A stretch of 15,746 bases of DNA from a candidate division CSSED10-310 bacterium. Lineage in GTDB: Bacteria > CSSED10-310. This document shows, piece by piece, positions 1,641 to 15,619 of this stretch (its first letter is position 1; each line of letters begins with the position of its first letter). Both the position numbers and the translations under genes were made by a program. The notes under the pieces are model-generated. The model ran no database searches. It was given only the letters and a program-made list of their open reading frames with translations, and had not been told where the DNA came from. The stretch lies in contig JAFGMN010000019.1 in the NCBI GenBank assembly GCA_016927515.1, positions 1-15,746 on the forward strand, given 5' to 3'.

Positions 1641-1716
1641 GACTCTCCCGAGTAAGTAGGCAGGCACCCCGATTCGGGTCAGTGCACAGTCCGTGTATCT
1701 GGGTCGTCGGTCGATT

Positions 1717-2118
1717 TCATTTCAGCAGGTCGTCATCGATTTCATGCATCATGGTCTCATGAAAACGCGCCGCCTTGGACGCATCTTTCCTTTCCATCAC
1801 CCGGTCCTGCAGTTTGCCGAGAATGGTTTTTTCCTTGTATCGAAGAACGACCTCACCCAGTTGCAGCAGATCATCATGTTCCAGCAGTGTCGCTTCAGAA
1901 AGACGTTTTCCGTTGATGAACGTTCCATTGCTCGATTTCAGATCGGTAACGAAATACTGATCCTCAGTCAACCGCAGTTGAGCATGCCGCCGGGAGACTG
2001 ATTTATCGTTGATTTGAACCAGGTTGACCGGCGATCGCCCGATCGTCAGAACGGCTTGACGTAAATGATAACTGTCTCCTATACCTGGTCCTCTTTCAAC
2101 AATCAGCCACCCGCTCAT
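1717..2118 (-). CDS. FHA (forkhead-associated) domain protein, 133 aa
   Basis: Canonical FHA signature: TIGRSPVNLVQINDKSVSRRHAQL ... DLKSSNGTFINGKRL. AGGAGG lies 6 nt upstream of the ATG at 2118 on the minus strand. The gene sits 50-77 nt upstream of the PBP4 gene on the same strand. Confidence 0.85.
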   Translation of the reverse strand: MSGWLIVERGPGIGDSYHLRQAVLTIGRSPVNLVQINDKSVSRRHAQLRLTEDQYFVTDLKSSNGTFINGKRLSEATLLEHDDLLQLGEVVLRYKEKTILGKLQDRVMERKDASKAARFHETMMHEIDDDLLK

Positions 2119-2375
2119 GCTTTGCCTCCTGAATCACTCACCGTCCGGCGGGAATTACAGTCCAACCCATCAAACAACCCCGGCTGGCGATACGTCAGAT
2201 ACGCCGGACATCTCGAAGCATACCGACAGGACACCTTGCAGATCTCGATGTTGATCCGGGGATTGTTCCGTCGCTTGGGGCACACAAGATAAATCGTTTC
2301 CCGACGCGTTTCCATTCCCTTATTTTACATAAACCTGTGCGGTAAACCACCAGTTTTTTCATTCGCATAAAGCTC

Positions 2376-2402
2376 TTGCTCCTGCATCCCATTCATTGTA
2401 AT
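2376..2402 (+). promoter_or_regulatory. Candidate sigma70-type promoter for the ankyrin lipoprotein gene (-35 TTGCTC, about 15-17 nt spacer, -10 TGTAAT/TAATTT)
   Basis: TTGCTC at 2376-2381 and TGTAAT at 2397-2402 (5/6 match to TATAAT) lie about 40 nt upstream of the ATG at 2442. This is hexamer matching by eye only. Confidence 0.2.
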
Positions 2403-2441
2403 TTCTGAAAGTCATTGGTTTCGAACAGCTGGAGGTGTTTC

Positions 2442-2966
2442 ATGATTCGATTTCTATGCGCATTTATGACTGTATTGCTGATCGCGGGCTGCTCATCCGA
2501 GATTCCGAAGAAAGCGGAACAGCCAGCCACGGTCGATACACAACCTGAACAACCGATGGAACCCAAGCGGTCCAGCGAGCCGGAACCGGATACGATTTTT
2601 TCGGCTGCTGCCAAGGGTCAGTTGGCCACGATTATGCGCCTGCTGGATGAAGGCACCGATGTCAATCTGAAGGATGCTTCAGGAATGACTGCGTTGTCAT
2701 GGGCATCGATGCGGGGCCGAGCCGGAATTGTCCGCTATCTTCTGGAACACAATGCCAATCCCAATATCCCCGATGACAAAGGACTGTATCCGCTGCACAA
2801 AGCGTGTCTTTTCGGCGATGAAAGCGTTATCCAGAATCTTTTGGATTTCAATGCGGATGTAAATGCGGCAGGTCCCGAGGGAGTCAAGGCCATTGATATT
2901 GCTCGTCGGATGAAACGGGAAAAGGCGGTTGAACTCCTCGAAATCGCGATGGCCAAAAAGAAATGA
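2442..2966 (+). CDS. Ankyrin-repeat lipoprotein
   Basis: GGAGGTG at 2431-2437 precedes the ATG at 2442; the longer ORF from 2415 lacks an RBS. N-terminal MIRFLCAFMTVLLIAGC has the features of a lipoprotein signal peptide with an LIAG-C lipobox. At least three ankyrin repeats are visible (FSAAAKGQLATIMRLLDEGTDVNLKDASGMTALSWASMRGRAGIVRYLLEHNANPN..., GLYPLHKACLFGDESVIQNLLDFNADVN). Confidence 0.8.
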   Translation: MIRFLCAFMTVLLIAGCSSEIPKKAEQPATVDTQPEQPMEPKRSSEPEPDTIFSAAAKGQLATIMRLLDEGTDVNLKDASGMTALSWASMRGRAGIVRYLLEHNANPNIPDDKGLYPLHKACLFGDESVIQNLLDFNADVNAAGPEGVKAIDIARRMKREKAVELLEIAMAKKK

Positions 2967-3098
2967 TCTGTCCATCTGTTCAGAGATAAACGAACCGTCA
3001 GAATTCCTCGGTATCGATCAATTTCCTGGAACCGGGGCATACCATCTACTGGCTGGAACCACGTATTGATTCGGATCCGGCAGCGCTGAATGGATCTA

Positions 3099-3135
3099 TC
3101 TCCGGCTTCTCTCCGATTGCTCTCCGGTTTCTCGG
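3099..3135 (+). repeat. Direct repeats of (T)CTCCGR at 11/11/9-bp spacing in the 5' region of the metalloprotease gene; possible regulator-binding array
   Basis: CTCCGG at 3100, CTCCGA at 3111, CTCCGG at 3122 and CTCGG at 3131. The roughly one-helical-turn periodicity places them on the same face of the helix, about 170-200 nt upstream of the GTG at 3300. Confidence 0.25.
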
Positions 3136-3299
3136 AATCGCTGCATTCTCACCCTGCCATTGAACCGCCAGTAAATCGAAGCGGATATGATCTCAGGAAA
3201 TGCATGTGATTGGCTGCATTCAGGGGCTCGGGTCCGAATTTTGCAGTGTTTGGGTTGGGTTTTTGGTTGTCACACAACTCACTATCAGGGGGAAGCAAC

Positions 3300-6200
3300 G
3301 TGAAAGGGAGATTTCAATGGTTATCAGTCACATTGGTGATTCTGTTATCGCCGATGTCCATACTGACCGTATCGGGATTCGATATCCCGGAAGAGAATCC
3401 GGTATCCCGGGCACTTCTTGTCGTACCGCATCAGGACATCCAGGTAACTCCATCAGTGGAAAACTTTTTCCATTTTGACGGAACTCGCCCGGCCATCGCC
3501 GGATATGATCAATTCCTTAACCGGTTCGGCGCTCAATGGGATATTCAGTACGACCGGCGCAATAACCGGCCGGACATCATTTCCGGACAGGGTATTCCGA
3601 TGATACCGGGAGCTGGAAACGAGTTAACGATGAAGGACGTGCTACTCGATGGGCGCTCGATTCAGAGCATCGATGCATCGATCATGATCGATCTCACCCG
3701 GCAGTTCATTATAGACCAGAACGATCTGCTCCGACTGGACCTGTCTCAATTGGAACCCGATCTGGATAATACCCTGACATTCGGTTCCAACAACCGGATC
3801 TGGCTTGTGCATTTCAAACAGGTGTATGCCGGAATCGAAGTCAAGTTTGCCGATGTCTTCTTCCGATATAATGCCGGTAACCTGACGCAATTCGGCGCGC
3901 ACCGGTATGTGGATATTCCGGACGGTCTGAGCGCGATTCCTGAAGTGAAAGGAGAAGATGCCCTGACCATTTCTGTGAATCATGCTGAGACGGAGTGTAC
4001 CGGTGAATTGGACGTATTTGAATCGCCGGAACTGTTTTGGGTCCCGGTATTTAGTGATGCTGATGGCGTGAAGAAGCCGGGCGAGATTTACGATGGCCCA
4101 GCCGGTGAGGGATATGGGCTTCGCCTGGCATGGGAGTTAAAGTTTCGTCTGTTGCCGAACGCTGAAACGTGGTATTCCGTCGTCGATGCTCAGACCGGCG
4201 AAATCCTCAGTTTCCGTGATTCGAATATGTATGAGTCCGTCTTTGGCGGAGTCTATCCCGTGACCAATTTGGATCCGGAAGTACTGCTCCCATTTCCATT
4301 CGTCACAACATCCGCAGGAAATTCGACGTCTGGCGGTCAATTCAACTCCGCAGGATCGACCTCTGCTGATCTGAACGGCCAATATGTCCGAATCAGTGAC
4401 AGCTGTGGCGCTATCAGCCTCAGTTCCACCAGCGATCTGGATTTCGGTTCCAGCGGCGGTCAGGACTGCACGACGCCGGGTTTCGGTGGTGCTGGCAACA
4501 CGCATGCGTCCCGCTCCTGTTTCTACCACCTCAGCCAAATCAAGTTCAAAGCCATGGGATACCTCCCCACAAATACCTGGCTGCAGGGAAAAGTCCGATC
4601 GAACCTGAACATCAACAATACGTGCAACGCATATTGGGATGGCAGCAGCGTTAACTTTTACCGGTCTGGCGGAGGCTGTTCGAACACGGGTGAAATCGCT
4701 TCAGTATTTCTGCATGAATGGGGTCACGGTCTTGATTATAACACCGGGACATCGTCCAGTGAAATGGCGTCAGCGGAAGGCGTCGCGGATTCCATGAGTT
4801 TTCTGCAGACAGGTGTTGCCTGTATCGGACACAACTTTACTCCGGGCGACCCCTGTAGTTTCGGCTGTGGTAGCGATTGCACCGGTGTCCGGGATCCCAG
4901 TGTCCGGCCGGCAATCAGTCCATCAACTATTGCTTCGAGTCCGGCCGATTGTGATCGCTGGAGTTGCCCATATAGTGGGTACGAAGGAATTATGGGATAT
5001 GAAGGGCATTGTGAATCCCTGATTTCCGGTGGAGCGGTTTGGGATGTAGCGACCAATTTGGCAACCTCGCACGGAGCGGCAGGATGGGAGTTGGCCAACC
5101 GGATCTTTTTAGAGGGAATGGGGGATTACCGTGGCGCGTATCAACTGGTATCTGGTGGAACCTGTAATCCGAGTGCTGTCGTCAATGGATGCGGAGCGCA
5201 AAACTGGTTTACCGTCTGGATCTTCATGGACGACGATAACGGCAATCTGGCTGACGGAACGCCGCATGCGGAGCAGATTTGGGATGGATTTGCGAACCAC
5301 GGGATCGCTTGCGGCAACCGGCCGGTCAACTATACCGTCTGCGCCAATCTGGCGACCCCCATTTTAACCGCTGTGCCCGGAGATGAATCGGCGACATTAA
5401 GCTGGACCAGCGTTCCAAATGCCGATCGCTATATCCTCTACAGAAACACGGCGGGATGCACGTTTGCCATGAATATCATCGCCACAACCAGTTCGCTCCA
5501 ATACGTAGACACGACCGTGGCCAACGATTTTACTTACTATTATGCCGTGCAGGCGGTCGGACTGAACGATCAATGCCGCAGTCTGTTCTCCACCTGCACT
5601 CCGGTTGAAATAACCGGATGCATCAATCCACCATTGGTCAATGCCGGAAACGATGTGGAAACGTGCCCCGGGAATGCCGTGACACTGGGCGGGAACCCGA
5701 CAGCAACCAACGGTACGCCACCGTTCAACTACCTGTGGACTCCGGGCAACCACACAACAGCAAACCCCGTTATATATCCCAATCAGACAACAACCTACAC
5801 AGTCACCGTCACCGATGCCATCGGATGCGTCGGTATGGATTCGGTTACCGTGATTATGGACGCTCCCGCTGTCAACGCCGGATTCGATCAGTTCACGTGC
5901 GCGGGATATTGCGTGCAACTCGGCACCGCTCCCGTTTCCGGTTACGTCTATTCCTGGACACCCACCACAGGTCTCAGTAATCCGACCATCGCCAATCCAA
6001 CTGCCTGCGTAACGGAAACAACCCAATATACAGTGACCGTAACCGCCGACGGGTACCTTTGCCAGGGCCAGGATCACGTCTCTGTTTTCGTCGATCTGCC
6101 GTCCCTGGCAGTATCGAATGTCGAAATCCTGTCGGATTCCGGTGACGGCGACGGATTTCTGGAAGCGGGGGAGAGCGGCGAACTCCGTATCTCCCTGATG

Positions 6201-7853
6201 AATCAAGGGTTTGTTCCTTCATACGATACTCTGGCCTATTTGACTCCATCGGATCCCTACCTGTACATCGTGAGTGATCCACAATTTATCGGCGATATCG
6301 GATTCGGCGGAATGGAGCAGTTCACATGCACGGTAATCGTCGATCAGCGGCATTCCTGTCCGGTGATCCAGGTGGTCGAGATCGGTTTGGAAGCCTGCGG
6401 AGGTTCAATTCAGGGAATTCCGATGAATCTGACCCTGGGTCAGCCCGGTGGTACGGAATTGATCTATTCCACCGGATTCGAAGGACCGGACGACGAAGGC
6501 TGGACCCACGCGCAGGTCCAAACTCAGGACGACTGGCAGCGGGATGTACCACAGGGAACCAGTAGTTACGATCCTGGCTCAGCCTATGAGGGTGCATATT
6601 GCTGGGGTAATGATCACGGCCAATCGGGATGGGACGGAAACTACAAGAATAATGTCAACAACTATCTCGAATCCCCCTCCTTCAATTGTTCCGGAAAAAC
6701 AGGCGTTAAAATCCAGTTCATGCGGTGGTTAAGTGTTGAAGAGGGTGTTTACGATCAGGCTTCCCTTTCAGTGAACAGCAATGCTGTCTGGCAGAATCCG
6801 GCGAGCGGTAACCATCTCGATACCAGTTGGATCCCTCTCGAATACGATATATCCACTTGGGCCGATGATAATCCCAGTGTGCGCATCCGGTTTACACTGG
6901 AATCCGACGAAGGTCTGACCTTCGGTGGATGGAATATCGATCAGTTCGCTATTCTGGCGGACAGCGATCCGGAATGTGATGTGTTCGATTGCGATGCCGC
7001 TGAAGCTCTCGCCGGGAACGATCAGAGTGTTCCCGCTGGTTCCCAGGTCACCCTCGATGGTAGCGGATCGTATGTGACTGGCTGTGTGTCCGGAGTCGAA
7101 TATCGATGGATCGGCGGCGGATTACCCGGCAGCTGGACCGATGATCCCATTGCAGTAGATACCGTCACTTCCGCCACAACGTATTCACTGACTATCCGGT
7201 GTGCCGCAGGGCCCGGTGTCCCTACCTGCACAGACAGTGACACCGTGACAATCTATATCAACGGTCAACCCACTCCGACAAGCATTCCACCAACCTTCAC
7301 TCCAGTACCCGATACACCCACACCGACCATGACCGCAACACCCACAGCCACGCTCACCCCAACCTTCACTCCGACGCAACCCGCAACCGCCACCCCCACA
7401 CCGACAACCCCACCCGGAGAACCAACAAATACACCATTCCCAACCAATACTCCGACGCCAACGCATACGAACCCACCCCAACCAACGTCCACTTCAACAC
7501 CCGAGCCCCAGACAATCCATCTCGATCTGTTGATGAGTCAATCGATATTCCAGAGCGGTGACTGGTTTGATTTGACAACACACGTTTGGAATCCCGGACC
7601 CGATTACCCGGTCGACGAATATCTGATGCTCGAAGTGTACGGCAGCTATTGGTTCTATCCTGACTGGTCCATGACCCTCACACACAACTTCCGCATGCTA
7701 TCTTCGGGAGATAACTATCAGACGATTATGGCATTCACCTGGCCACAGGTTTCGGGATCCGCTTCAGGTCTCCACTTCTTCTATGTCCTGACGAAACCGG
7801 CCACATTCGAAATTGTCAGTAATCTGGCCACTGCTACATTCGGCTATAACTGA
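3300..7853 (+). CDS. Secreted multidomain zinc metalloprotease of about 1517 aa, thermolysin/fungalysin-like (clan MA gluzincin, M36/M4-like), with FTP/PepSY propeptide, FN3, three PKD/SprB-like Ig repeats, lectin/MAM-like domain, Pro/Thr linker and unknown C-terminal domain
   Basis: The ORF track starts at TTG 3210, but the in-frame GTG at 3300 is preceded by AGGGGGAAG at 3287-3295 and gives a classic signal peptide (MKGRFQWLSVTLVILLSPMSILTVSG). The propeptide (VHFKQVYAGIEVKFADVFFRYNAGNL) looks like FTP/PepSY. The HExxH motif is HEWGH at 4713-4727 (VFLHEWGHGLDYNTG); its downstream AEGVADSMSF aligns with the third-ligand Glu region of fungalysin (EGWSDF) and thermolysin (NEAISDIFG). TLSWTSVPNADRYILYR...YYYAVQAV is FN3-like. 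Two tandem 80-aa repeats (NAGNDVETCPG...TTTYTVTVTDAIGC and NAGFDQFTCAG...TTQYTVTVTADGYLC) and a third copy at aa 1258-1352 are present. An 82-aa PT-rich linker follows. The stop at 7851-7853 is followed by an intrinsic terminator. Confidence 0.85.
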   Translation: MKGRFQWLSVTLVILLSPMSILTVSGFDIPEENPVSRALLVVPHQDIQVTPSVENFFHFDGTRPAIAGYDQFLNRFGAQWDIQYDRRNNRPDIISGQGIPMIPGAGNELTMKDVLLDGRSIQSIDASIMIDLTRQFIIDQNDLLRLDLSQLEPDLDNTLTFGSNNRIWLVHFKQVYAGIEVKFADVFFRYNAGNLTQFGAHRYVDIPDGLSAIPEVKGEDALTISVNHAETECTGELDVFESPELFWVPVFSDADGVKKPGEIYDGPAGEGYGLRLAWELKFRLLPNAETWYSVVDAQTGEILSFRDSNMYESVFGGVYPVTNLDPEVLLPFPFVTTSAGNSTSGGQFNSAGSTSADLNGQYVRISDSCGAISLSSTSDLDFGSSGGQDCTTPGFGGAGNTHASRSCFYHLSQIKFKAMGYLPTNTWLQGKVRSNLNINNTCNAYWDGSSVNFYRSGGGCSNTGEIASVFLHEWGHGLDYNTGTSSSEMASAEGVADSMSFLQTGVACIGHNFTPGDPCSFGCGSDCTGVRDPSVRPAISPSTIASSPADCDRWSCPYSGYEGIMGYEGHCESLISGGAVWDVATNLATSHGAAGWELANRIFLEGMGDYRGAYQLVSGGTCNPSAVVNGCGAQNWFTVWIFMDDDNGNLADGTPHAEQIWDGFANHGIACGNRPVNYTVCANLATPILTAVPGDESATLSWTSVPNADRYILYRNTAGCTFAMNIIATTSSLQYVDTTVANDFTYYYAVQAVGLNDQCRSLFSTCTPVEITGCINPPLVNAGNDVETCPGNAVTLGGNPTATNGTPPFNYLWTPGNHTTANPVIYPNQTTTYTVTVTDAIGCVGMDSVTVIMDAPAVNAGFDQFTCAGYCVQLGTAPVSGYVYSWTPTTGLSNPTIANPTACVTETTQYTVTVTADGYLCQGQDHVSVFVDLPSLAVSNVEILSDSGDGDGFLEAGESGELRISLMNQGFVPSYDTLAYLTPSDPYLYIVSDPQFIGDIGFGGMEQFTCTVIVDQRHSCPVIQVVEIGLEACGGSIQGIPMNLTLGQPGGTELIYSTGFEGPDDEGWTHAQVQTQDDWQRDVPQGTSSYDPGSAYEGAYCWGNDHGQSGWDGNYKNNVNNYLESPSFNCSGKTGVKIQFMRWLSVEEGVYDQASLSVNSNAVWQNPASGNHLDTSWIPLEYDISTWADDNPSVRIRFTLESDEGLTFGGWNIDQFAILADSDPECDVFDCDAAEALAGNDQSVPAGSQVTLDGSGSYVTGCVSGVEYRWIGGGLPGSWTDDPIAVDTVTSATTYSLTIRCAAGPGVPTCTDSDTVTIYINGQPTPTSIPPTFTPVPDTPTPTMTATPTATLTPTFTPTQPATATPTPTTPPGEPTNTPFPTNTPTPTHTNPPQPTSTSTPEPQTIHLDLLMSQSIFQSGDWFDLTTHVWNPGPDYPVDEYLMLEVYGSYWFYPDWSMTLTHNFRMLSSGDNYQTIMAFTWPQVSGSASGLHFFYVLTKPATFEIVSNLATATFGYN
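7266..7511 (+). repeat. Low-complexity Pro/Thr-rich linker-coding region (CA-rich, G-poor on the coding strand) inside the protease gene
   Basis: Encodes QPTPTSIPPTFTPVPDTPTPTMTATPTATLTPTFTPTQPATATPTPTTPPGEPTNTPFPTNTPTPTHTNPPQPTSTSTPEPQ. Its skewed composition generates spurious Gly/Val/Trp/Cys-rich antisense ORFs at 7185..7581. Confidence 0.8.
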
Positions 7854-7876
7854 TACCGGCTGACCAACCCATAGAC

Positions 7877-7908
7877 GGTGATCCCTTGTTGGATCACCGT
7901 TTTTTTTT
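7877..7908 (+). terminator. Rho-independent terminator of the metalloprotease gene
   Basis: A perfect 8-bp stem GGTGATCC (7877-7884) / GGATCACC (7891-7898) with a 6-nt loop CTTGTT, followed by a T9 run at 7900-7908, 24 nt after the stop codon. Confidence 0.85.
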
Positions 7909-7994
7909 ATGATAGTCTCCTTCCCGATCGATCGGATCACCGGGAATAAGCTACGATGAACCACAATGAAGAAACCCAATGAAACGACTCGGAA

Positions 7995-8033
7995 ATGAAC
8001 GCGATGAAAAAGCAGGTTAAAAAGGCACGGTAA
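7995..8033 (+). other. Possible 12-codon Lys-rich leader uORF (MNAMKKQVKKAR) whose TAA stop overlaps the ATG of the downstream kinase gene (TAATG)
   Basis: ATG 7995 ... TAA 8031-8033 shares its final A with ATG 8033. The uORF sits in a cluster of five ATGAA pentamers between 7956 and 8008. Only a weak SD (GGAA) precedes it, so it could be a chance ORF in an A-rich leader. Confidence 0.2.
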
Positions 8034-9679
8034 TGAAATTGCTAATAGAAGATCGAGATGTCATTGATGTGAATGCCGGTGATTCCTTGGTGGAAATCGC
8101 CCGCCAGTTCCAGAAAGATCATCAGTTTCCCATTGTTCTGGCGCGAGCCAACAACCGGTTAGTTGATCTATGGTATAAACCCGTTGGCGACACGCGGATT
8201 GAATTCATTGATCTTGGAATGGTGGACGGCATTAAATCGTACCGGCATGCTCTTGTTTTTGTAATGCTTCGCGCATTCCATGAGCGGTATCCCGAAATGC
8301 GGCTGATCGTCGCCCACTCTTTAGGGCGTGCATTTTATATTTCACCTAAAAACGGGGATGAAATCACTGATTTCATGCTGCAACAGGTGCGGGAGCGAAT
8401 GATGGCGATTGCCGAGATGGATGAACCGTTCGTTCGAACGAAGGTGAAGCGGGAAGACGCCATTATCGAGATGCAAAACGAGGGACTGGACGATAAAGTC
8501 CGGTTGTTGCGATGGATCGATCAGGAGTATATCCATCTGTACCGGTTCGGCGAATTGAAAGAGTATTTTTTTCGTCCCTTGGTTCCGTCATCGGGGTGTC
8601 TGACTCGTTTCTGCCTGGATAAATACCACTCCGGCTTTCTTTTAGGAACTCCGAGCCACGCAACACCGGGTCGAATTACGCCGGTAACCCGATACAACAA
8701 ATTGTTCCAGATTTTTCAGGAGTATGAAACGTGGGGACGTATACTTGAGATCAGCGATGTCGGACACTTGAACGAATCTGTCGCGAAAAGCAGGATCAAA
8801 GATATCATGCTGATCTGCGAAACACTTCACGAGAAGAAAATCGGTAACATCGCAGACCGGATCCAGGTGACATCACCCCGTCCCCGGGTCATCCTGATCG
8901 CGGGTCCATCATCTTCCGGCAAGACAACGTTTTCCAAACGCCTGGCTCTTCATCTCAAAGTCAATAAACTGACACCGCACACGATCGAAATGGACGATTA
9001 CTTCGTGCCACGCACCCGAACACCCCGGCTCCCCAGCGGCGAATACGACTATGAAAACATAGAAGCCATCGACCTCGAACTCTTCAACCACCATATGATC
9101 CAGTTACTTAACGGTGAAACCATCGAACTTCCTCATTACGATTTCGGCACCGGTGTGCAAACGCCATCCGGCCGTATGATGACCCTTAAAAACGGGGATG
9201 TTCTCATCGTTGAGGGAATCCATGGGTTGAACAACCGGTTGACCAAGTCCGTGCCGGATCACGACAAATTTAAAATCTACGTCAGTGCACTGACTCACCT
9301 GAATATCGATGACCACAACCGCTTCTCGACAACGGATACCCGCCTGTTGAGACGGATCGTTCGTGACAGCCACTTCCGTTCGTATCGAGCCCTGGAAACG
9401 CTTCGGCGCTGGCCCTTGGTACGTGAAGGAGAAAACCAGTGGATATTCCCCTACCAAGAAGATGCCGATGTGATTTTTAACTCCTCTTTACCCTATGAAA
9501 TCAGCGTTCTGCGATCATTCGCAATTCCCGTTCTCATGAAGATTCCTCGAACGGAACCGGAGTATTCCGAGGCTCGCCGGTTGATGGACCTGCTGTTATG
9601 CTTCCGGGAGGTATCAACCGCTGACGTTCCCTATATATCGATTCTCCGGGAATTCGTGGGCGGCAGCATTTTTCAATAA
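8033..9679 (+). CDS. Uridine kinase/phosphoribulokinase-family P-loop kinase fused to ThrRS-N-terminal-like TGS and second domains (548 aa)
   Basis: The N-terminus resembles ThrRS N1/N2: TGS-like (LARANNRLVDLWYKPVGDTRIEFID) and SYRHALVFVMLRAFHERYPEMRLIVAHSLGRAFYI (compare RHSxAHxL...GFYYD). The kinase half carries the P-loop IAGPSSSGKTTFSKRL. Udk-like blocks are visible: NIEAIDLELFNHHMIQLLNGETIELPHYDFGTG (compare Udk FDHPDAFD...NG..V..P.YDF.TH), VLIVEGIHGLN, LKIYVSALTHLNIDD and RDSHFRSYRALETLRRW. Confidence 0.8.
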   Translation: MKLLIEDRDVIDVNAGDSLVEIARQFQKDHQFPIVLARANNRLVDLWYKPVGDTRIEFIDLGMVDGIKSYRHALVFVMLRAFHERYPEMRLIVAHSLGRAFYISPKNGDEITDFMLQQVRERMMAIAEMDEPFVRTKVKREDAIIEMQNEGLDDKVRLLRWIDQEYIHLYRFGELKEYFFRPLVPSSGCLTRFCLDKYHSGFLLGTPSHATPGRITPVTRYNKLFQIFQEYETWGRILEISDVGHLNESVAKSRIKDIMLICETLHEKKIGNIADRIQVTSPRPRVILIAGPSSSGKTTFSKRLALHLKVNKLTPHTIEMDDYFVPRTRTPRLPSGEYDYENIEAIDLELFNHHMIQLLNGETIELPHYDFGTGVQTPSGRMMTLKNGDVLIVEGIHGLNNRLTKSVPDHDKFKIYVSALTHLNIDDHNRFSTTDTRLLRRIVRDSHFRSYRALETLRRWPLVREGENQWIFPYQEDADVIFNSSLPYEISVLRSFAIPVLMKIPRTEPEYSEARRLMDLLLCFREVSTADVPYISILREFVGGSIFQ

Positions 9680-9688
9680 GGGGACGCA

Positions 9689-11185
9689 ATGGCCCGCATC
9701 CTGCTGGTTTTTCCTCCATCTGCTTATCGCAATCACACGCCACCGCTGAACCTGGCATATCTCGCCGCTGTACTTGAGAAGGATGGGCACGAGGTTCAGA
9801 TTCTGGACCTTTCAGCTTTCCATCCACCATGTACTCCGGATGAAGCCATCGCTATCGCGCGTGATTTCAATCCGCTCTGGATCGGTATCACGCTTAATGT
9901 GATTTTCATCAAACCTGCATATGAATGGATACAAAAAATCCGGACCCTCAAGATACCAATAGTGGCCGGTGGACCACATCCAAGCCTGCTGTTCGACGAA
10001 GCGATTGAGAATGGATGTGACATCGTTGTACGGGGTGAAGGAGAACAGACGGTTTGTGAACTGACCCGTGCGCTTCACCAAGGAACGCCTCTCGACACCA
10101 TCCCCGGTTTGGTTTTCCGTGATGATCATCGAACCATACGGAATACCGGTTTTCGAAAACCGATAGCGGATCTTGATGAGTTGCCGTTCCCGGCCAAACA
10201 TCTTTTTCCACGCCATTGGTATACGGATGATTCCCCCACCTATCAGGTCTACGGCGCGATTTTTTCAGGTCGCGGTTGCCCCGCAGCTTGCACATATTGC
10301 TACAAGGGTGTTTTCGGGCCTGGATGCCGATTCCGTAGCGCGGAAAACGTATTCGAAGAAATGCTGTTCTTGAATCGTACTTACAACGTGACAGCTTTCG
10401 AATTCATGGATGATGCTTTTTCTGCAGACTTGGATCGCGTGGACCAATTATGCGATCTCATCAATCGAACACCCGGACTCGATATATGCTGGCAGTGCAC
10501 GACCCGATTGGACCTGACACGCCCCGACCTGCTCCAGAAAATGAAAAAAAGCGGATGCTTTAGGATTTTTTATGGATTGGAAAGCGGTGATCAGGATACC
10601 CTTTTTCGGGTCAATAAACACCTCGATCTCAACCATGCCATTCAGGTTCTCGAATGGACACATACACTGGGAATCCGGACCATTGTCGGCTTCATGTGGG
10701 GATTTCCTTGGGACTCTCCAGCCAGTGTTAAAGCCTCCATCCGATTACTTCGGACTATCGCCCCCTTCGTCGATGAATTTAATCCCCTGGGCATCCTGAT
10801 CCCTGTCCCCGGGACGCGGTTGTTCGAAGATTGTCGGAATCGATATCACTTGGACCACTGGTGGATTGAGGATCGATTTGGCCGGCTCTATCGCGACAAT
10901 GTCGTGTTTCCCTACTTTCAACGCCGTTTTTACAACGATTTCGCTTTACTGAACGATGGTTTCTTCCCATATTCACCTCAGGTCCGGCGGCTAATCCGAA
11001 AAGGAACCTCTTTTATCGGAAGGCACAATGTGCTCCGTAACACACCGCTATACAGGGCAATACCGGTTTTAGGTGCCGTGATGCTGTCCCGATTGCTGTT
11101 TTTGATCCATCCCCGGTTGGAGCAGTTTGTTTTCGGCTGTCTCACTACCGCCCGTGCACGTGTGCGGAAAAAAAGAACACGATGA
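9689..11185 (+). CDS. Cobalamin-binding (class B) radical SAM enzyme, 498 aa, unknown substrate
   Basis: AGGGGA lies 5 nt upstream of the ATG at 9689, 9 nt after the upstream stop. An N-terminal B12-binding-domain pattern is present (ARILLVFPPSAYRNHTPPLNLAYLAAVLEKDGHEVQILDL ... IPIVAGGPHPS ... DIVVRGEGEQT). The radical SAM CxxxCxxC motif is SGRGCPAACTYC at 10276-10299. There is a C-terminal extension of about 150 aa of unknown function. The stop overlaps the next start (ATGA at 11182-11185). Confidence 0.85.
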   Translation: MARILLVFPPSAYRNHTPPLNLAYLAAVLEKDGHEVQILDLSAFHPPCTPDEAIAIARDFNPLWIGITLNVIFIKPAYEWIQKIRTLKIPIVAGGPHPSLLFDEAIENGCDIVVRGEGEQTVCELTRALHQGTPLDTIPGLVFRDDHRTIRNTGFRKPIADLDELPFPAKHLFPRHWYTDDSPTYQVYGAIFSGRGCPAACTYCYKGVFGPGCRFRSAENVFEEMLFLNRTYNVTAFEFMDDAFSADLDRVDQLCDLINRTPGLDICWQCTTRLDLTRPDLLQKMKKSGCFRIFYGLESGDQDTLFRVNKHLDLNHAIQVLEWTHTLGIRTIVGFMWGFPWDSPASVKASIRLLRTIAPFVDEFNPLGILIPVPGTRLFEDCRNRYHLDHWWIEDRFGRLYRDNVVFPYFQRRFYNDFALLNDGFFPYSPQVRRLIRKGTSFIGRHNVLRNTPLYRAIPVLGAVMLSRLLFLIHPRLEQFVFGCLTTARARVRKKRTR

Positions 11186-12132
11186 ATACCGATCCTGCCA
11201 ACCGTCGACCCATTCAGGCCGTCACGCTGGGATATGCGTCCATCGATCATTTTATTCGCGTTGAAAAATTTCCTCGACTCGGTCAAAAGATACCGTTTCA
11301 CGGGTATTCTGTAATGGGTGGAGGCCAGGCGGCAACCGCCGCAGTCGCTTTGGCTCGCTGGGGACTCTCGGTTCGCTGTATTGGCCGTGTCGGAGGAGAT
11401 GAAACGGGGGATCGGGCGATTCAGTGGCTTCAGGATGAACATGTGGTCACGGATAGCATGATTAAAACCCCGGGTTTGACCAGTCAGACGGCATACATCA
11501 TTGTGCCCGATGATTGTGGTGAACGCACGGTCATTTGGAATCGGCAACCCGGATTGAACCTCCGACCCGCTGATCTCCGTAAAGAATGGTTCGATGGGGT
11601 TTCAGTTCTTTTTCTCGACGGACACGAAATCGATGCCGCTGTCACGGCCGCACGGTGGGTGAAACAACAGGGTGGAAAAGTGGTTCTGGACGCGGAGCAT
11701 ATCGGTGTCGAGCGCGATTCACTGCTCGCTCATACGGATATCGCCTTTGGAAGTGAAGACTTCGGTATGCGGGAGTTCGGTGTCAGCGATCCCATTGAAA
11801 CGATCGGCATCCTTCGCGGGTATGGAATCCCACTGGCGGGAGTCACTCTGGGTGCCCGGGGAAGTCTGGCGGATTGGGGTGAGGGAATACGCCGGTTCAG
11901 TGCTGTTCCCGTGCGAGCCATTGACACAACGGGTGCAGGAGATATTTATCATGCCGCATTGACATACGGTATTTTACACGGGATGCCCTGGGAACATCTG
12001 ATATCGTTCGCGTCCATTGCCGCCAGCCTAAGTTGCAGGGCTCTTGGTGGCCGCGCCGCTATCCCTTCACTGGAAGAAATCACGGAACATACTGTCTCGG
12101 AAGACCGCCTGGAGAAAACGAATGAATGCTGA
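11182..12132 (+). CDS. PfkB/ribokinase-family carbohydrate or nucleoside kinase, 316 aa
   Basis: The N-terminal GG-containing sheet region (VTLGYASIDHFI...GGGQAATAAVALARWG) and the PfkB signature DTTGAGD (AIDTTGAGDIYHAAL) are both present, as is the anion-hole GARGS. It is translationally coupled to both neighbours. Confidence 0.85.
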   Translation: MNTDPANRRPIQAVTLGYASIDHFIRVEKFPRLGQKIPFHGYSVMGGGQAATAAVALARWGLSVRCIGRVGGDETGDRAIQWLQDEHVVTDSMIKTPGLTSQTAYIIVPDDCGERTVIWNRQPGLNLRPADLRKEWFDGVSVLFLDGHEIDAAVTAARWVKQQGGKVVLDAEHIGVERDSLLAHTDIAFGSEDFGMREFGVSDPIETIGILRGYGIPLAGVTLGARGSLADWGEGIRRFSAVPVRAIDTTGAGDIYHAALTYGILHGMPWEHLISFASIAASLSCRALGGRAAIPSLEEITEHTVSEDRLEKTNEC

Positions 12133-12727
12133 ATTGATGCCGCGGTTCAGGATCATTCCAGGTGAACGCAGGCATGTGGCGGGGTTTCATTGCGAGCCGG
12201 ATCAAGCGTTTTTCGATCGGCTGATACGAAAAAAACCATTAGCGGCCGTTTCGCGCCATCTGGCTGAGGCGATTGAAGCCAGTCGACAAGAAACGGGGCA
12301 ATGGGTCCGGACTGCGGCCATTTATGGTCTGTTTATACCGGATGACACCATGGCACACGGGTTTCCCGGTGCGAATCTTGTGGCCCTGGCTTTGGTGACA
12401 TGTGGCCGGGATCTCGACATTGCCATAGATCGACGAACTAGACTCAATGATGTGCTGGGAAGTTTCCTTCTCGATGCATGGGGTAGTGCCTGGGTGGAAG
12501 GAGCGGTCAGTGTCATTGACCGCATGATTCGGCTGGAAGCCGGTTTACTGGGATTGAATGGCGGAAAGCGCCGCAGTCCCGGATATCCGCCGTGGCAAAT
12601 CACGGACCAGCGGCACCTGATCGATCGGCTTCACGGCACCGACATGGGCATATCCCTGACGGATTCGCTCATGCTGATACCCAGAAAATCCGTCAGTTTC
12701 GGTATTCCTCTGACGCCAGCAACCTGA
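12122..12727 (+). CDS. Stand-alone homolog of the AdoMet-binding reactivation (activation) domain of cobalamin-dependent methionine synthase (Met_synt_B12-like), about 201 aa
   Basis: The likely start is ATG 12122 (MNAELMPRF), preceded by GGAGAAA at 12111-12117, and it overlaps the PfkB stop by 11 nt; the track ORF begins at 12044 without an RBS. The C-terminal half matches, as recalled from memory, the E. coli MetH activation domain. KRRSPGYPPW carries the RxxxGY AdoMet-binding motif (MetH R1134...Y1139). GISLTDSLMLIPRKSVSFGI matches GMKLTESFAMWPGASVSGW. LLDAWGSAWVEGAVSVIDRMIR matches LADRLAEAFAEYLHERVRK. Confidence 0.6.
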   Translation: MNAELMPRFRIIPGERRHVAGFHCEPDQAFFDRLIRKKPLAAVSRHLAEAIEASRQETGQWVRTAAIYGLFIPDDTMAHGFPGANLVALALVTCGRDLDIAIDRRTRLNDVLGSFLLDAWGSAWVEGAVSVIDRMIRLEAGLLGLNGGKRRSPGYPPWQITDQRHLIDRLHGTDMGISLTDSLMLIPRKSVSFGIPLTPAT

Positions 12728-13337
12728 ATTTTTCCAGTGTCCATGAATCCGCGGGATGTATTTCCGGCGGCTGACCGGGCATGATTTCTATGGATAGATG
12801 GTCCAGTTCAACCCCACGATCCCCTAGTTCTGCCTGGCACCGGTGTGCTGCTTCCACCAGGAACAGGTCGAGCGCGGGAGGTTTCAGCTGGTCATGCATC
12901 GTGTCCCTGATCATTGCGGTCAATGTGCCTCGAAGATGATATTCAATATAAGGATCGAGTCGCTGACCGTCAAAATGATGAATAATATCTGCCGCCCGCT
13001 TCCGGGAAATCGAGTAATGCGCGATCACATGTAGCCCGATCTTAAAGTTATCGGCGCTGAGCATCTCCACTTGTTTCAATTCCCTGAAATTCCCCATCAT
13101 GTAATGACCCAGCACAACATCACCCGTCAGCTGAATCATTGTCACTCGATGGGTTAACGGCCAGACGATGTGGATTCCGGGATTCAGAATAACAATCGGA
13201 TCCTGATGCCACAAGAACCGGCGCACACCCAATGTATCTGCTGGAATCCGGAAGATCCCGGTAACCATGATGCCCAAAAAAAACAAACAAAGACCGATAA
13301 CACCATGACGAATTAAGGAGTATCGGCGCCCACTCAT
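12693..13337 (-). CDS. SPFH/Band-7 (stomatin/prohibitin/HflC-like) domain membrane protein, minimal 214-aa form
   Basis: An N-terminal TM segment (VIGLCLFFLGIMVTGIF) is followed by an SPFH-like pattern (LNPGIHIVWPL..V, LSADNFKIGLHVIAHYSI, LVEAAHRCQAELGDRGVELDHLSIEI). The start ATG at 13335-13337 overlaps the TAA of the upstream gene by 1 nt (TAATG on the minus strand). The 3' end overlaps the convergent plus-strand gene by 35 nt. Confidence 0.55.
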   Translation of the reverse strand: MSGRRYSLIRHGVIGLCLFFLGIMVTGIFRIPADTLGVRRFLWHQDPIVILNPGIHIVWPLTHRVTMIQLTGDVVLGHYMMGNFRELKQVEMLSADNFKIGLHVIAHYSISRKRAADIIHHFDGQRLDPYIEYHLRGTLTAMIRDTMHDQLKPPALDLFLVEAAHRCQAELGDRGVELDHLSIEIMPGQPPEIHPADSWTLEKFRLLASEEYRN

Positions 13338-15619
13338 TACCTGATCCTCCGAACCGGCTGGTCGCTTTCGACCAGGAATACGCTGCGCTCCGGATGCATC
13401 TCCATCAACTCACGTGTCGCTTCAGCAGAATAATCCATCGCATAAATCACATCTCCGGAAAAATCAGGAATTCGGTTGAGATGGAAAAACGGAATATAGA
13501 TATAATCCGGTGGTCCCCTGAACAGCATAATGGAGTGATGCATTTGATTTTGTCGGACTGCTGCGATGGTTTCGTCCCGGACATTGCAGTAGTTCGAAAA
13601 AGCAGCCATTTCGTATGGCCAGTACATCGTCAGACTGCCGATTACAAGACCCAGTATGCAGACGATGCAGAGGGCCGAAGCAATGCGACGCGCGACGGCA
13701 GTGTTGAAATAAATAGCCATTTTTTCACCGAGCAGATCAATACCGCGCGTGGACACCAGTGCAATGAGCGGCATGCATTCCGACCAATACCGCGGTTCAT
13801 GTGTCCATCCAAAGTGAGCAAGTGCAGAATAAACGCAACCATTGAGTGAGAACGTCAGAATGAAAATCCAGTCCCAGGGGTTTTTTGAACGGAGAATAAT
13901 CGGCAGGAAAGCGAACATCAGCGTCATGTATGGAATCCAACCGAAGCCGCGCATCAGGAACCAGGTGGTATTTTGTTGCAGGTATTTCCAGAATGTCGCT
14001 GTATCGTTTCCAGTGCTAAAGCGATCTTCCACCTGGTATTGAATCAGTTCCCATCGTCCGGTGGTGAACCAGGCATGGGCGCAAGTGGTGGAAGCGATCA
14101 GCAGGCAGGTCAAAGCAAACAGCGCGATGGGACGCAGCTTGCGTCGGCGCAGGCAAGATAAAGCGAAAAAACACACGGAACCTGTTGCGAAGACCAATGC
14201 TGTGACGGGCCGGATAACGAAGAGGATTCCGAATGATAGGCCGGCGGTGAGTGCGTGCCGATTTGATGGGAATGAGCTAGCGCGGATCATACACAGAATG
14301 AACACGGAGGAAGCCGCAGCAGCGGATATATGGGACATGTAGCTTCCGCCGAGGAGTATAAACAGGGGTGAACTGACAAGCAGAATGCCGGCAGCGGGTC
14401 CGGTCCAACGGGCACCGGTCAGTTTTAACCCGATTCGAATGGTTGCCAGGACGGTCATGGCCGTGCACAGTGCGGGAATCAGTGATAGCAGTCCGAGTCG
14501 ATATCCTGCTGCAAGAATGAGCGAATGACCGTATGTGTAGTAGCTGAACACCCTGTCTTCCCACCAGATCCCCAGGTGTTTGAAGCAGGGAATCGGTTGT
14601 GGGGGAGGGATAAACCATCGACCGGATGCGAATACCTTGGCTTGGAACAGGTATACAGCCTCATCGTTCACACGGGGAGTATGATTGAACACCGAGGAAC
14701 TCACCCAGTATGCAGCAAAGAAAGCCAGTACGACCACGCCACCTGTCATCCAGAAAATACTGCCGGAGTGTCCTCCGGGGCTTTCATTTTTTTCTGCCCC
14801 GGTGGTTTTCGGTGAAACCGCAGTGGGGAGGGTTTTGTCTGGTGGATCATCCCGCACGCGGGTGCGTTTTGTTTTGATCATGCGGATAGGAATGAGAAGC
14901 AAGCCAGTCAAACACGCCGTCAAGCCGATCAGGAGAATCGAGAAGAAGGCCCCGATGATCATGCGGAAAGTCCAGATAGTCCGAAGTTGACGGGGCATGG
15001 ATGGATTGATCAGGTATCGCTGAGTCCACTCCCAGGTATCATTCAGAGCAAATCCGTAACATCCGGAAAAAACGTCCGCATTGAAAATATTTCGATTCCG
15101 GGAATCGCTATCAACGAAATGAATACGGATGGAAGTCGGCATGATGCAGTCGATTTCCAGAACGCAGTCCGCCAGGTTGATCGAAGGATTGTCCAGGAAA
15201 AGGGGTTGAAAATGACCGAATCCGGCGGTTTTTTCGATGCCGAGTCGATGCAGGATTGGATATGCCCATTCTGAAGCCGATGCCCACGTGGGAACACTGT
15301 GTGGACCCGATCGCCAGATTGGGCTGAAGCGTGACGATTCCCGTATCACCGCGCCGGTAAAGAGTTGGAAAAACTGCACCTCATGCGGGCGCTGCAGCAT
15401 TTGATGGAAGAAAATTTCGATTCTGGGTTTTTTCACCGGCAGGGGATGGGCCATGTTGAGGCACTCCCCATCAATGTAAGCTTCCATCCGTTCCGGTGAG
15501 TAAAAAATCGTCAGGTGATGATGATTGGCGTGAATCAATCGGAACAAGCAACCAATGAACACTCCGGTCAGGAAAATAAAAATGAGAAGACGAATTGGAC
15601 GTCCGGATTGGCGATGCAT
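13337..15619 (-). CDS. Integral membrane GT-C-fold glycosyltransferase-like protein (ArnT/PMT_2-like) with an extra N-terminal TM plus a roughly 190-aa extracytoplasmic domain, 760 aa
   Basis: There are more than ten predicted TM segments. The DE-motif loop typical of GT-C (ArnT/PMT) enzymes follows the third TM segment (PRVNDEAVYLFQAKVFASGRWFIPPP). A C-terminal soluble domain is present. The N-terminal 200 aa (a TM at aa 10-27, then a Cys/His-containing soluble segment, then a second TM) is not typical of this family. No clear SD is visible, so the start is uncertain. Confidence 0.6.
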   Translation of the reverse strand: MHRQSGRPIRLLIFIFLTGVFIGCLFRLIHANHHHLTIFYSPERMEAYIDGECLNMAHPLPVKKPRIEIFFHQMLQRPHEVQFFQLFTGAVIRESSRFSPIWRSGPHSVPTWASASEWAYPILHRLGIEKTAGFGHFQPLFLDNPSINLADCVLEIDCIMPTSIRIHFVDSDSRNRNIFNADVFSGCYGFALNDTWEWTQRYLINPSMPRQLRTIWTFRMIIGAFFSILLIGLTACLTGLLLIPIRMIKTKRTRVRDDPPDKTLPTAVSPKTTGAEKNESPGGHSGSIFWMTGGVVVLAFFAAYWVSSSVFNHTPRVNDEAVYLFQAKVFASGRWFIPPPQPIPCFKHLGIWWEDRVFSYYTYGHSLILAAGYRLGLLSLIPALCTAMTVLATIRIGLKLTGARWTGPAAGILLVSSPLFILLGGSYMSHISAAAASSVFILCMIRASSFPSNRHALTAGLSFGILFVIRPVTALVFATGSVCFFALSCLRRRKLRPIALFALTCLLIASTTCAHAWFTTGRWELIQYQVEDRFSTGNDTATFWKYLQQNTTWFLMRGFGWIPYMTLMFAFLPIILRSKNPWDWIFILTFSLNGCVYSALAHFGWTHEPRYWSECMPLIALVSTRGIDLLGEKMAIYFNTAVARRIASALCIVCILGLVIGSLTMYWPYEMAAFSNYCNVRDETIAAVRQNQMHHSIMLFRGPPDYIYIPFFHLNRIPDFSGDVIYAMDYSAEATRELMEMHPERSVFLVESDQPVRRIR

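Follow-up and report, generated by a model that had tools for sequence, protein, structure and literature searches.

A compact four-gene unit predicted to encode two kinases, a class B radical SAM enzyme and a MetH-type reactivation domain in the candidate phylum CSSED10-310

Introduction

Class B radical SAM enzymes that act on sugar or ribose rings include AprD4 (PDB 6FD2), OxsB (5UL2-4), HpnJ and the methylases of the GenK/Fom3 type. These enzymes combine an N-terminal B12-binding-type Rossmann domain with a partial TIM-barrel radical SAM core that carries a CxxxCxxC motif. AprD4 is a sugar dehydratase acting on the sugar ring and is partnered by a reductase (AprD3), and OxsB is partnered by a phosphohydrolase (OxsA). 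The reactivation domain of methionine synthase (MetH) also occurs as a stand-alone protein, of which Thermotoga maritima TM0269 (1J6R) is an example. Such proteins belong to split methionine synthases and to corrinoid methyltransferase systems of the Mtg type: relatives of the TM0269 type adjoin a split MetH, or a corrinoid protein together with a homocysteine methyltransferase (HcyMT) and an MTTB-family methyltransferase. In addition, Firmicutes and other anaerobes contain a family of long (about 550 aa) 'nucleoside kinases' that combine a ThrRS-N-like region with a Udk domain and of which we know of no characterised member. The PfkB kinases include a branch containing ribokinase (RbsK) and YihV.

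Proteins that resemble each of these are encoded by four adjacent genes, here g1 to g4, in the window, the 15,746-nt stretch of DNA from a bacterium of the uncultured candidate phylum CSSED10-310 that was analysed. The radical SAM protein g2 has the domain layout of the class B enzymes named above, but is set apart from the solved members by a conserved C-terminal three-helix region of its own and by having two kinases as partners instead of a reductase or phosphohydrolase. The g4 protein equals TM0269 in size and shares its fold over the full length, yet the two are about 16% identical, and g4 adjoins genes for a PfkB kinase and a B12-binding-domain radical SAM protein (B12-rSAM) and ileS. 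The g1 protein shares its architecture and Udk motifs with the long nucleoside kinases; the genes of that family are solitary elsewhere, whereas a B12-rSAM gene lies 6-26 nt downstream only in CSSED10-310. The g3 protein shares the GG and DTxGAGD motifs with the ribokinase/YihV branch, and GGGxAATAA with YihV (7AG6), but scores below all curated equivalog cut-offs.

Layout and conservation of the unit

The genes and their upstream boundary are listed below.

7873..7902, plus strand: intrinsic-terminator-like hairpin and T-run (12-pair stem with 6 G-C pairs, then TTTTTTTAT)
7903..8032, plus strand: A-rich leader of 130 nt, recognised by reading the sequence
8033..9679, plus strand: g1, predicted nucleoside kinase of 548 aa, Udk/PRK-type in its C-terminal part (residues about 280-490) and ThrRS-N-terminal-like in its N-terminal part (residues about 16-210)
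9689..11185, plus strand: g2, predicted radical SAM enzyme of 498 aa; B12-binding (Rossmann) domain at the N-terminus, three-helix region (430-497) at the C-terminus
11182..12132, plus strand: g3, predicted PfkB-family sugar kinase of 316 aa, ribokinase/YihV-like type; start codon shared in part with the g2 stop codon (ATGA)
12122..12727, plus strand: g4, predicted stand-alone MetH reactivation (AdoMet-binding) domain of 201 aa, TM0269 type; overlaps g3 by 11 nt

The list of open reading frames and the sequence itself reproduce exactly the four plus-strand genes and the junctions of the initial annotation, which are +9 nt for g1|g2, -4 nt for g2|g3 and -11 nt for g3|g4. The start of g4 is an in-frame ATG at 12122 with GGAGAA ahead of it. 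The stop codon of a 12-codon uORF in the leader (7995-8033) overlaps the start codon of g1 (TAATG). No riboswitch in the leader reached the Rfam gathering score, and matches at E<=10 were at chance level. The leader is far shorter in the relatives L002, L007 and L096, where about 15-61 nt separate the Ank gene from g1.

The hairpin terminates an upstream gene of 1547 aa and forms the 5' boundary. At the other end, an SPFH gene on the minus strand (12693-13337) runs towards g4 and shares 35 nt with its 3' end, so that the four genes stand as a discrete unit within the window. With genes on one strand, short or overlapping junctions, a terminator and a convergent gene as bounds, and an order kept in relatives, the locus has the properties by which operons are recognised. 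The genes form a compact unit with a layout consistent with a single transcript. The four include no gene for a nucleotidyltransferase, phosphatase, transporter or regulator that could complete a pathway.

Gene order and tight spacing are conserved in all CSSED10-310 relatives that were recovered, i.e., eight other loci (L002/L003, L004, L006, L007, L094, L095, L096 and L097) with 63-78% identity in the radical SAM protein. The junctions in these loci range from +6 to +26 (g1|g2), from -19 to +25 (g2|g3) and from -14 to +17 (g3|g4). In the L002/L003 lineage, g4 is missing and g1-g3 are intact. For 15 of the 21 closest radical SAM orthologues there is a g1 orthologue whose longest contig has an identical length, so that the two are probably on the same contig. 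Insertions are found outside the unit only: the window has a protease gene ahead of g1, an SPFH and GT-C-like pair follows g4 there and in L095, and L006 has a PMT_2 gene after g4. Among the loci recovered, the four-gene arrangement was not found outside CSSED10-310.

The flanks are conserved to a similar degree, with an S13 peptidase gene and the Ank gene upstream and ileS-lspA-lgt-rluD-SIR2 downstream. Tight spacing is also common here: the g4|ileS junction is -4 nt in L096 and +29 nt in L004. The coding density of the phylum has been reported as 93-94% (PMC8248873). Because flank synteny is similarly conserved, the conservation and packing of the unit may reflect slow rearrangement in a dense genome, and the conserved flanks and the g4/ileS overlap mean that tight packing does not specifically point to a shared function. 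Co-transcription with translational coupling, as initially proposed, thus fits the arrangement, but the same packing extends to the unrelated ileS. Likewise, the gene order is conserved in eight independent loci, but within a single phylum-level clade in which the flanks are syntenic as well.

The radical SAM enzyme

The g2 protein matches the Pfam families B12-binding (PF02310; 72.8 bits, cut-off 32.1) and Radical_SAM (PF04055; 67.2 bits, cut-off 29.5). The [4Fe-4S] cluster motif CxxxCxxC is present as C197-x3-C201-x2-C204 and is invariant in 40 sequences, and C255 and C290 are further invariant cysteines, in which g2 differs from the solved class B members. An AF2 model (pLDDT 92.3) gave AprD4, MgmA, TsrM, OxsB, CysS and TokK as the best folds, with E-values from 1e-23 to 1e-15 and about 20% identity to each. 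The nearest solved structure is AprD4 (E 1.5e-23, TMq 0.67). The cluster motif, the B12-binding-type domain and the overall fold predict that g2 is a class B radical SAM enzyme. It may or may not bind cobalamin: to our knowledge, AprD4 carries the same B12-binding-type domain yet no cobalamin.

The curated B12-rSAM models of NCBIfam that matched g2 all scored below their cut-offs: ApyD (156.5 bits, cut-off 750), HpnJ (136.5/577.6, ranking second), BchE (114.9/481), PhpK (104.5/600), HpnR (85.8/650), AprD4 (82.5/500) and BzaD (80/450, ranking 11th). HpnP is absent from the reported matches. Membership of a characterised family such as BchE, named initially as grounds for giving up the proposal, is rejected by these scores. 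On sequence grounds, g2 is a clade-specific radical SAM subfamily. The kinase-linked radical SAM proteins form one clade in a neighbour-joining tree, and among the loci recovered, the subfamily occurs only with the kinases. Kinases like g1 or g3 were found beside the B12-rSAM gene in 0 of 75 other loci.

More distant relatives of g2 point to carbohydrate chemistry. Genes for GT4, PIG-L and GNAT proteins are close by in relatives with 54-56% identity, and relatives with 33-40% identity, in other phyla, are located among glycan genes. One of the wider relatives (L088) lies in a Wzx/Wzy/glycosyltransferase context, others adjoin Wzt, NeuB with a CMP-sugar cytidylyltransferase, GT1 or PMT_2, and one is found with a sugar transporter and a 3-keto-disaccharide hydrolase. 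These contexts are in keeping with the sugar substrates that AprD4, HpnJ and OxsB use.

The two kinases

The C-terminal part of g1 matches PRK (PF00485) at residues 286-484 with 68.1 bits (Pfam cut-off 22). The Udk motifs GPSSSGKT, MDDYF, PHYDF and the lid RLLRRIVRD are kept and align with the uridine-cytidine kinases (UCK) of Thermus and human. Assignment as a Udk equivalog was rejected, with scores below the NCBIfam cut-offs (82.5 bits against 180 for NF004018 and 75.8 against 220.3 for TIGR00235). The TGS domain (PF02824) of the initial annotation went undetected in residues 1-279, even at E<=10; with E about 2e-4, this part shows weak similarity to the N-terminal domains of ThrRS, and some homologues of g1 have a recorded PF02824 match. 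Full-length homologues of about 550 aa number in the thousands, are 42-49% identical among the matches listed, and are named 'nucleoside kinase' or 'uridine kinase'. The family is widespread, and its gene is solitary in Koleobacter (L090, Firmicutes) and in assembly GCA_964619725.1 (L089), where a relative of the radical SAM gene is found at a separate locus (L086). The solitary genes indicate that the function of g1 is independent of the radical SAM enzyme.

The g3 protein matches PfkB (PF00294) with 135.9 bits (Pfam cut-off 25.8), and the motifs GGGQAATAA and DTTGAGD can be read directly in its sequence. As a ribokinase (RbsK) equivalog it was rejected, with 128.4 bits against 299.65 and 113.4 against 341 in NCBIfam, and the ribose-binding GGKGANQ of ribokinase is replaced by GGGQAAT. 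The structure-database matches include ribokinase 6ZNX (107 bits) and sulfofructose kinase 7AG6 (100.7 bits). Models of archaeal ribose-1-phosphate kinase also match g3, at 82 and 77 bits, far below their cut-off.

The reactivation domain

In g4, Met_synt_B12 (PF02965) scores 24.3 bits, slightly below the Pfam cut-off of 25. The single sequence finds 1J6R with E=4e-7 (Phmmer), and a family profile finds 1J6R with E=6e-17 and E. coli MetH (1MSK) with E=9e-4, with RxxxGY aligned. This AdoMet-binding motif, R150-x3-G154-Y155 (RRSPGY) in g4, is a conserved feature of the family, and its aligned counterpart in E. coli MetH is RPAPGY. The model (pLDDT 90) has TM-scores of 0.78/0.79 to 1J6R and of about 0.7 (query-normalised) to MetH reactivation domains. 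The predicted membership of g4 in the MetH activation domain family is secured by profile and fold despite the Pfam shortfall. Four of the six Pfam assignments proposed initially were thus right as they stood; this fifth one needed the additional comparisons, and the sixth was TGS.

The g4 family is very large, with 4045 clusters at E<=1e-10, of which the best 150 are all stand-alone and include no fusion with a radical SAM protein. Relatives of g4 are nearly always found with corrinoid methyltransferases: among 80 metagenomic g4-like loci, an MTTB-family methyltransferase is encoded at 47, a corrinoid protein at 40 and a homocysteine methyltransferase at 22. Outside the CSSED10-310 clade, none of these loci has a kinase neighbour, and a radical SAM gene, weakly similar and convergent, is present at two. 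One relative (L093) adjoins a MetH without the activation domain, and another (L091) has a corrinoid protein, HcyMT and MTTB context. In L099, a g4-like gene stands ahead of ileS with no PfkB gene immediately upstream. Genes for MetH, corrinoid proteins, MTTB or S-methyl_trans proteins are present neither in the window nor in the related CSSED10-310 loci, and within the unit, g2 is the sole corrinoid-type protein that g4 could serve.

Possible functions of the unit

At a probability of about 0.4, the unit is best read as a B12-rSAM module that modifies a sugar or ribosyl group and has recruited a reactivase. The g2 enzyme would use radical chemistry to modify a sugar or ribosyl ring, most probably by C-methylation via methylcobalamin, or alternatively by a dehydration or ring rearrangement as in AprD4, HpnJ or OxsB. 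One or both of the kinases would supply or trap the phosphorylated substrate or product. The g4 protein would have been recruited from corrinoid-methyltransferase systems and, like the MetH activation domain, would convert cob(II)alamin to methylcob(III)alamin with AdoMet, as an accessory and not an obligatory component. Modification of a nucleoside or sugar phosphate had been suggested initially from the gene content, and a sugar or ribosyl substrate does gain some support because AprD4 is the nearest structure and the relatives with 33-40% identity lie in glycan clusters. A link between g2 and at least one kinase is plausible, at somewhat less than even odds, and a role of g4 in serving g2 is the more tentative proposal. 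That all four genes belong to one pathway, as initially proposed, is rather unlikely. This single-pathway reading is possible and unproven, because the unit is confined to one clade, the g1 family is solitary elsewhere, the relatives of g4 serve corrinoid methyltransferases and not radical SAM enzymes, g4 was lost once, no fusion is found and the packing includes ileS.

Nearly as likely is a mosaic housekeeping operon, in which co-transcription would result only from a dense genome and a long co-directional block (Ank, g1-g4, ileS, lspA, lgt, rluD). The kinases g1 and g3 would then be ordinary nucleoside and ribose salvage kinases, g2 would be an unrelated sugar- or glycan-modifying radical SAM enzyme, and g4 would act in trans as the reactivation subunit for a split MetH, or for a different corrinoid methyltransferase, whose gene lies elsewhere. 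Such an operon would account for the solitary g1 genes of other phyla, the methyltransferase partners of g4 relatives (L091, L093), the position of g4 or a g4-like gene at ileS (L096, L099), the loss of g4 in one lineage and the syntenic flanks, and the matches of g3 to archaeal ribose-1-phosphate kinase models are compatible with nucleoside catabolism alongside g1. It accounts less well for the gene order, as kinase genes alternate with the two cobalamin-related genes and do not form two adjacent pairs, and this order is invariant with insertions on both sides. The radical SAM subfamily that is seen only alongside the kinases, and a g3 without GGKGANQ and far below the ribokinase cut-offs, also argue against it.

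It is improbable that the kinases clear or recycle nucleosides from the SAM chemistry of g2 and g4 instead of making the substrate of the radical SAM enzyme. A methylating B12-rSAM releases S-adenosylhomocysteine (SAH) and 5'-deoxyadenosine, and adenosine kinases belong to PfkB. Adenosine from SAH, and 5'-deoxyadenosine or 5-deoxyribose from the radical reaction, would be the candidates, in line with two expected AdoMet consumers (g2 and g4) and with the interleaving of the two kinds of genes. However, no SAH hydrolase, MTA/SAH nucleosidase, deoxyribose-phosphate isomerase or aldolase is encoded in the unit, the active site of g1 is Udk-like and thus of the pyrimidine-nucleoside type, and such kinases are absent from the 75 other B12-rSAM loci.

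Alpha-ribazole salvage employs a dedicated kinase (CblS/CblT), and all four proteins can be linked to cobamide chemistry on paper. A cobamide module, in which the kinases would act on a riboside of benzimidazole or of a purine by phosphorylation, as in salvage of the alpha-ribazole type, g2 would methylate the lower-ligand ribotide like BzaD/BzaE and g4 would handle the corrinoid, is nevertheless very improbable, as the BzaD match of g2 is far under its cut-off and low in rank, no cobT, cobS, cobU, bzaA/B/C or cobalamin riboswitch is nearby, and the relatives of g2 are found in glycan and not in cobamide contexts.

The four-gene unit and its boundaries

The four-gene unit described in the initial annotation is confirmed by the ORF list, by direct sequence reading and by its boundaries, and the junctions of +9, -4 (ATGA) and -11 nt were found again with the same values in both. 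The window is a 15,746-bp contig from a candidate division CSSED10-310 bacterium, a source indicated by identical proteins in databases. All four encoded proteins (g1 to g4) are new members of known families, and their combination is an uncharacterised variant.

Features of the window
3210-7853, plus strand: 1547-aa protein that looks secreted; a long linker rich in Pro and Thr lies close to its C-terminus
7873-7902: terminator-like strong hairpin with a T-run, at the end of the 1547-aa gene
7995-8033, plus strand: 12-codon uORF MNAMKKQVKKAR; its TAA stop codon and the ATG of g1 overlap (TAATG)
8033-9679, plus strand: g1, Udk-type nucleoside kinase (ORF list and direct sequence reading)
9689-11185, plus strand: g2, radical SAM enzyme with a B12-binding domain (ORF list and direct sequence reading)
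11182-12132, plus strand: g3, PfkB kinase (ORF list and direct sequence reading)
12122-12727, plus strand: g4, stand-alone MetH reactivation-domain protein, with an in-frame ATG after a GGAGAA ribosome-binding site; an alternative start is possible at 12137
12693-13337, minus strand: SPFH/Band-7 gene, converging on g4 with a 35-nt 3' overlap at 12693-12727
13337-15619, minus strand: GT-C-like multi-pass membrane protein (LA_3751/2 family, E=3e-4)

The hairpin upstream and the convergent SPFH gene downstream indicate that the four genes are a self-contained unit in the window. There is no terminator between g4 and the SPFH gene where their 3' ends overlap, and the overlap is kept in the related locus L095 (32 nt, 2727-2758). 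No RNA family or riboswitch was found upstream of g1. The uORF sits within an A-rich leader containing several ATGs and is probably not conserved, since the leader is far shorter in relatives. The 1547-aa protein has no Pfam match at E<=0.001, and M36-metallopeptidase models match it only faintly. Its gene separates g1 from the upstream Ank gene in the window, while the gap between Ank and g1 is about 15-61 nt in the relatives L002, L007 and L096.

The radical SAM enzyme

The assignment of g2 as a B12-radical SAM enzyme is supported by matches to both the B12-binding domain and the radical SAM core, with the motif C197/C201/C204. Membership of a characterised family such as BchE, which could have explained the neighbouring genes, was also considered; no curated model came near its cut-off, and BchE, HpnJ, HpnR, ApyD, AprD4 and BzaD all scored far under the curated NCBIfam cut-offs. 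The AF2 model of g2, a confident one (pLDDT 92.3), matches AprD4, MgmA, TsrM, OxsB, CysS and TokK, with an identity of about 20% to each. Among three further cysteines, C255, C270 and C290, two are invariant and one is nearly so in 40 sequences with identities down to 33%. An auxiliary cluster site or a catalytic role is conceivable for them.

Relatives of g2 at 33-40% identity in other phyla have carbohydrate-gene surroundings. In L088, the neighbours are Wzx, Wzy, GT4, GT2 and methyltransferases, and further contexts contain a Wzt-type ABC transporter, NeuB with a CMP-sugar cytidylyltransferase, GT1, PMT_2, or a sugar transporter with a 3-keto-disaccharide hydrolase. AprD4, the nearest enzyme of solved structure, works on a sugar ring, and the second-best model is HpnJ, a radical SAM enzyme of hopanoid biosynthesis whose substrate is likewise a sugar ring. 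Based on these glycan contexts and substrates, a sugar or ribosyl substrate fits g2. The proposed modification of a nucleoside or sugar is thereby supported in general terms, with the two kinases as putative suppliers of g2. A literature search for sugar C-methylating B12-radical SAM enzymes in polysaccharide clusters returned nothing relevant.

Radical SAM enzymes that are 54-56% identical to g2 have different neighbours, such as an overlapping SPASM radical SAM gene in L005. Directly upstream of two of them lies a 66-aa Cys-rich DUF6485 gene (L086, 7751-7951; L087, 3481-3681), and GT4, PIG-L deacetylase and GNAT genes are kept nearby in both loci. DUF6485 could be a partner or substrate of this sister subfamily; it was rejected as a part of the window's locus, from which a homologue is absent.

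The kinases

The g1 protein contains a Udk/PRK kinase domain (PF00485 at 68 bits in Pfam) in which the P-loop, the Udk substrate motif and the lid motif are all intact. Its N-terminal part of about 210 residues weakly resembles the N-terminal domains of threonyl-tRNA synthetases (E about 2e-4); the TGS domain claimed for g1 was not recovered in a Pfam TGS search. Over its full length, g1 belongs to a widespread family of about 550 aa named 'nucleoside kinase' or 'uridine kinase' in databases, and the homologues listed share 42-49% identity, many of them from Firmicutes. A homologue without the cluster partners is found in Koleobacter (L090), and another is solitary in GCA_964619725.1 (L089), an assembly that carries a 54-56% radical SAM relative elsewhere. 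The PfkB assignment of g3 holds at 135.9 bits. This protein scores about equally against ribokinases and the sulfofructose kinase YihV, and it has the GGGxAATAA motif in common with YihV.

The reactivation-domain protein

Family profile and fold agree with the claim that g4 is a MetH-reactivation-domain protein. With the profile, Thermotoga TM0269 (1J6R) is hit at E=6e-17; E. coli MetH is matched too, and the AdoMet-binding RxxxGY motifs line up. The g4 model and 1J6R superpose from end to end (TM 0.78). This family of stand-alone proteins is very large, with 4045 clusters at E<=1e-10, and g4 is an ordinary member of it in an unusual neighbourhood.

Elsewhere, relatives of g4 usually accompany corrinoid methyltransferases. 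In a Leptospira-like relative, the gene overlaps that of an 814-aa MetH without an activation domain (L093), and in L091 it is flanked by genes for a homocysteine methyltransferase and an MTTB-family methyltransferase, adjoining one for a corrinoid protein. The g4 profile found 80 metagenomic loci; MTTB occurs in 47 of them, a corrinoid protein in 40 and a homocysteine methyltransferase in 22. Co-located reductive reactivation modules have been described for split MetH and MtgBCDE systems (PMC12478193). Within the same 80 loci, kinases stand beside the g4-like gene only in CSSED10-310, and a radical SAM gene is near it in just two, convergent and weakly similar. No fusion of a g4-like domain with a radical SAM enzyme was found among the best 150 of 7157 representatives.

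Conservation of the unit

The closest orthologues of g2 (P0001-P0021) are 62-77% identical, and for 15 of these 21 there is an orthologue of g1 whose longest contig has an identical length, so that the two are probably on the same contig. The kinase-linked radical SAM enzymes form one clade in a neighbour-joining tree. Gene order and tight junctions are alike in every relative with readable context (L002/L003, L004, L006, L007, L094, L095, L096 and L097), and g4 is missing from the L002/L003 lineage, in which g1 to g3 are kept. The 4.29-Mb contig ERZ21831077 contig_2 carries g4, and GCA_964404285.1 represents the lineage that lacks it. Insertions occur on both flanks of the unit and none within it, and the case for a selected unit rests mainly on this pattern.

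Insertions beside the unit
Window: protease gene between Ank and g1
Window and L095: SPFH and GT-C-like pair between g4 and ileS; in L095, the GT-C-like multi-pass membrane protein is at 3370-5622, minus strand (PMT_2 at 0.0027)
L006: PMT_2 gene; GT-C-like multi-pass membrane protein at 13006-14679, plus strand (PMT_2 at 4e-12)

Large GT-C-like membrane proteins recur right after g4 in three lineages, on differing strands. Orthology of those in the window and L006 is unsupported (BLASTP E=0.24), though both look GT-C-like. A 3.7 kb contig labelled Candidatus Thorarchaeota (L094, SDNG01000230.1) has the same order of PfkB, g4 and ileS, at 52-67% identity to the window, and probably belongs to CSSED10-310, having been misbinned into an archaeal MAG.

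The flanks are syntenic too, with an S13 peptidase (minus strand) and Ank upstream and ileS-lspA-lgt-rluD-SIR2 on the same strand downstream; in L096, g4 and ileS overlap by 4 nt. The coding density of the phylum is 93-94% (PMC8248873), indicating that tight packing is generic in CSSED10-310. In L099, a distant g4-like gene (151-684, 32% identity) directly precedes ileS (831-3599), and the 150 nt upstream of it do not resemble a PfkB 3' end; the adjacency of g4 and ileS may therefore predate that of g3 and g4. The neighbourhood, for which conservation across genomes was in question, is kept in CSSED10-310 relatives but absent outside the clade: a scan of GTDB species representatives (80 loci) did not find the cluster outside CSSED10-310. 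Two of these loci carry close relatives of g2; the other 78 hold B12-radical SAM enzymes at 26-38%, with no homologue of g1, g3 or g4 nearby.

Possible functions of the locus

The best reading, with a probability of about 0.4, is a lineage-restricted module of the radical SAM enzyme, at least one kinase and a recruited reactivation protein. Here, g2 would alter the ring of a sugar or ribosyl group, one or both kinases would handle the phosphorylated substrate or product, and g4, recruited from corrinoid methyltransferase systems, would support the cobalamin cycle. Nearly as likely is a mosaic operon in which salvage kinases and a MetH helper stand beside a radical SAM enzyme unrelated to them. 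The interpretation in the initial annotation is supported in part: a sugar or ribosyl substrate fits, but the cluster is confined to CSSED10-310 and g1 is solitary elsewhere. If the mosaic explanation is right, this is an ordinary block of densely packed genes, and it cautions that within-phylum synteny and tight packing do not define a pathway. By-product salvage is quite improbable, and a cobamide-related role even more so.

The locus would matter far more if g4 is a helper of the radical SAM enzyme. To our knowledge, the in vivo return of cob(II)alamin to its methylated state in cobalamin-dependent radical SAM enzymes is poorly understood, and one recent review on the cobalamin domains of these enzymes discusses no dedicated protein partner. 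A MetH-type reactivation domain encoded next to a B12-radical SAM enzyme is a concrete, testable candidate for such a re-methylation partner. It is doubtful, yet conceivable, that g4 remakes methylcobalamin from cob(II)alamin and AdoMet and that the operon yields a novel C-methylated or ring-rearranged ribosyl or sugar phosphate. If true, g4 would be the first methylcobalamin-regenerating accessory factor for cobalamin-dependent radical SAM enzymes, and the product would be a previously unknown compound in an uncultured phylum. The operon would also indicate a hitherto unknown sugar or nucleoside modification in CSSED10-310, for which anoxic sediment metagenomes are the sole source so far.

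A recurring corrinoid array

A recurring order was observed in the metagenomic loci, running from a corrinoid protein through an optional homocysteine S-methyltransferase and a TM0269-like reactivation protein to an MTTB-family methyltransferase (L101, L103, L105-L113, L131, L133, L142-L144, L155, L156, L161 and others). This array looks like a compact split methionine-synthase or quaternary-amine demethylase system that includes a reactivation subunit of its own.
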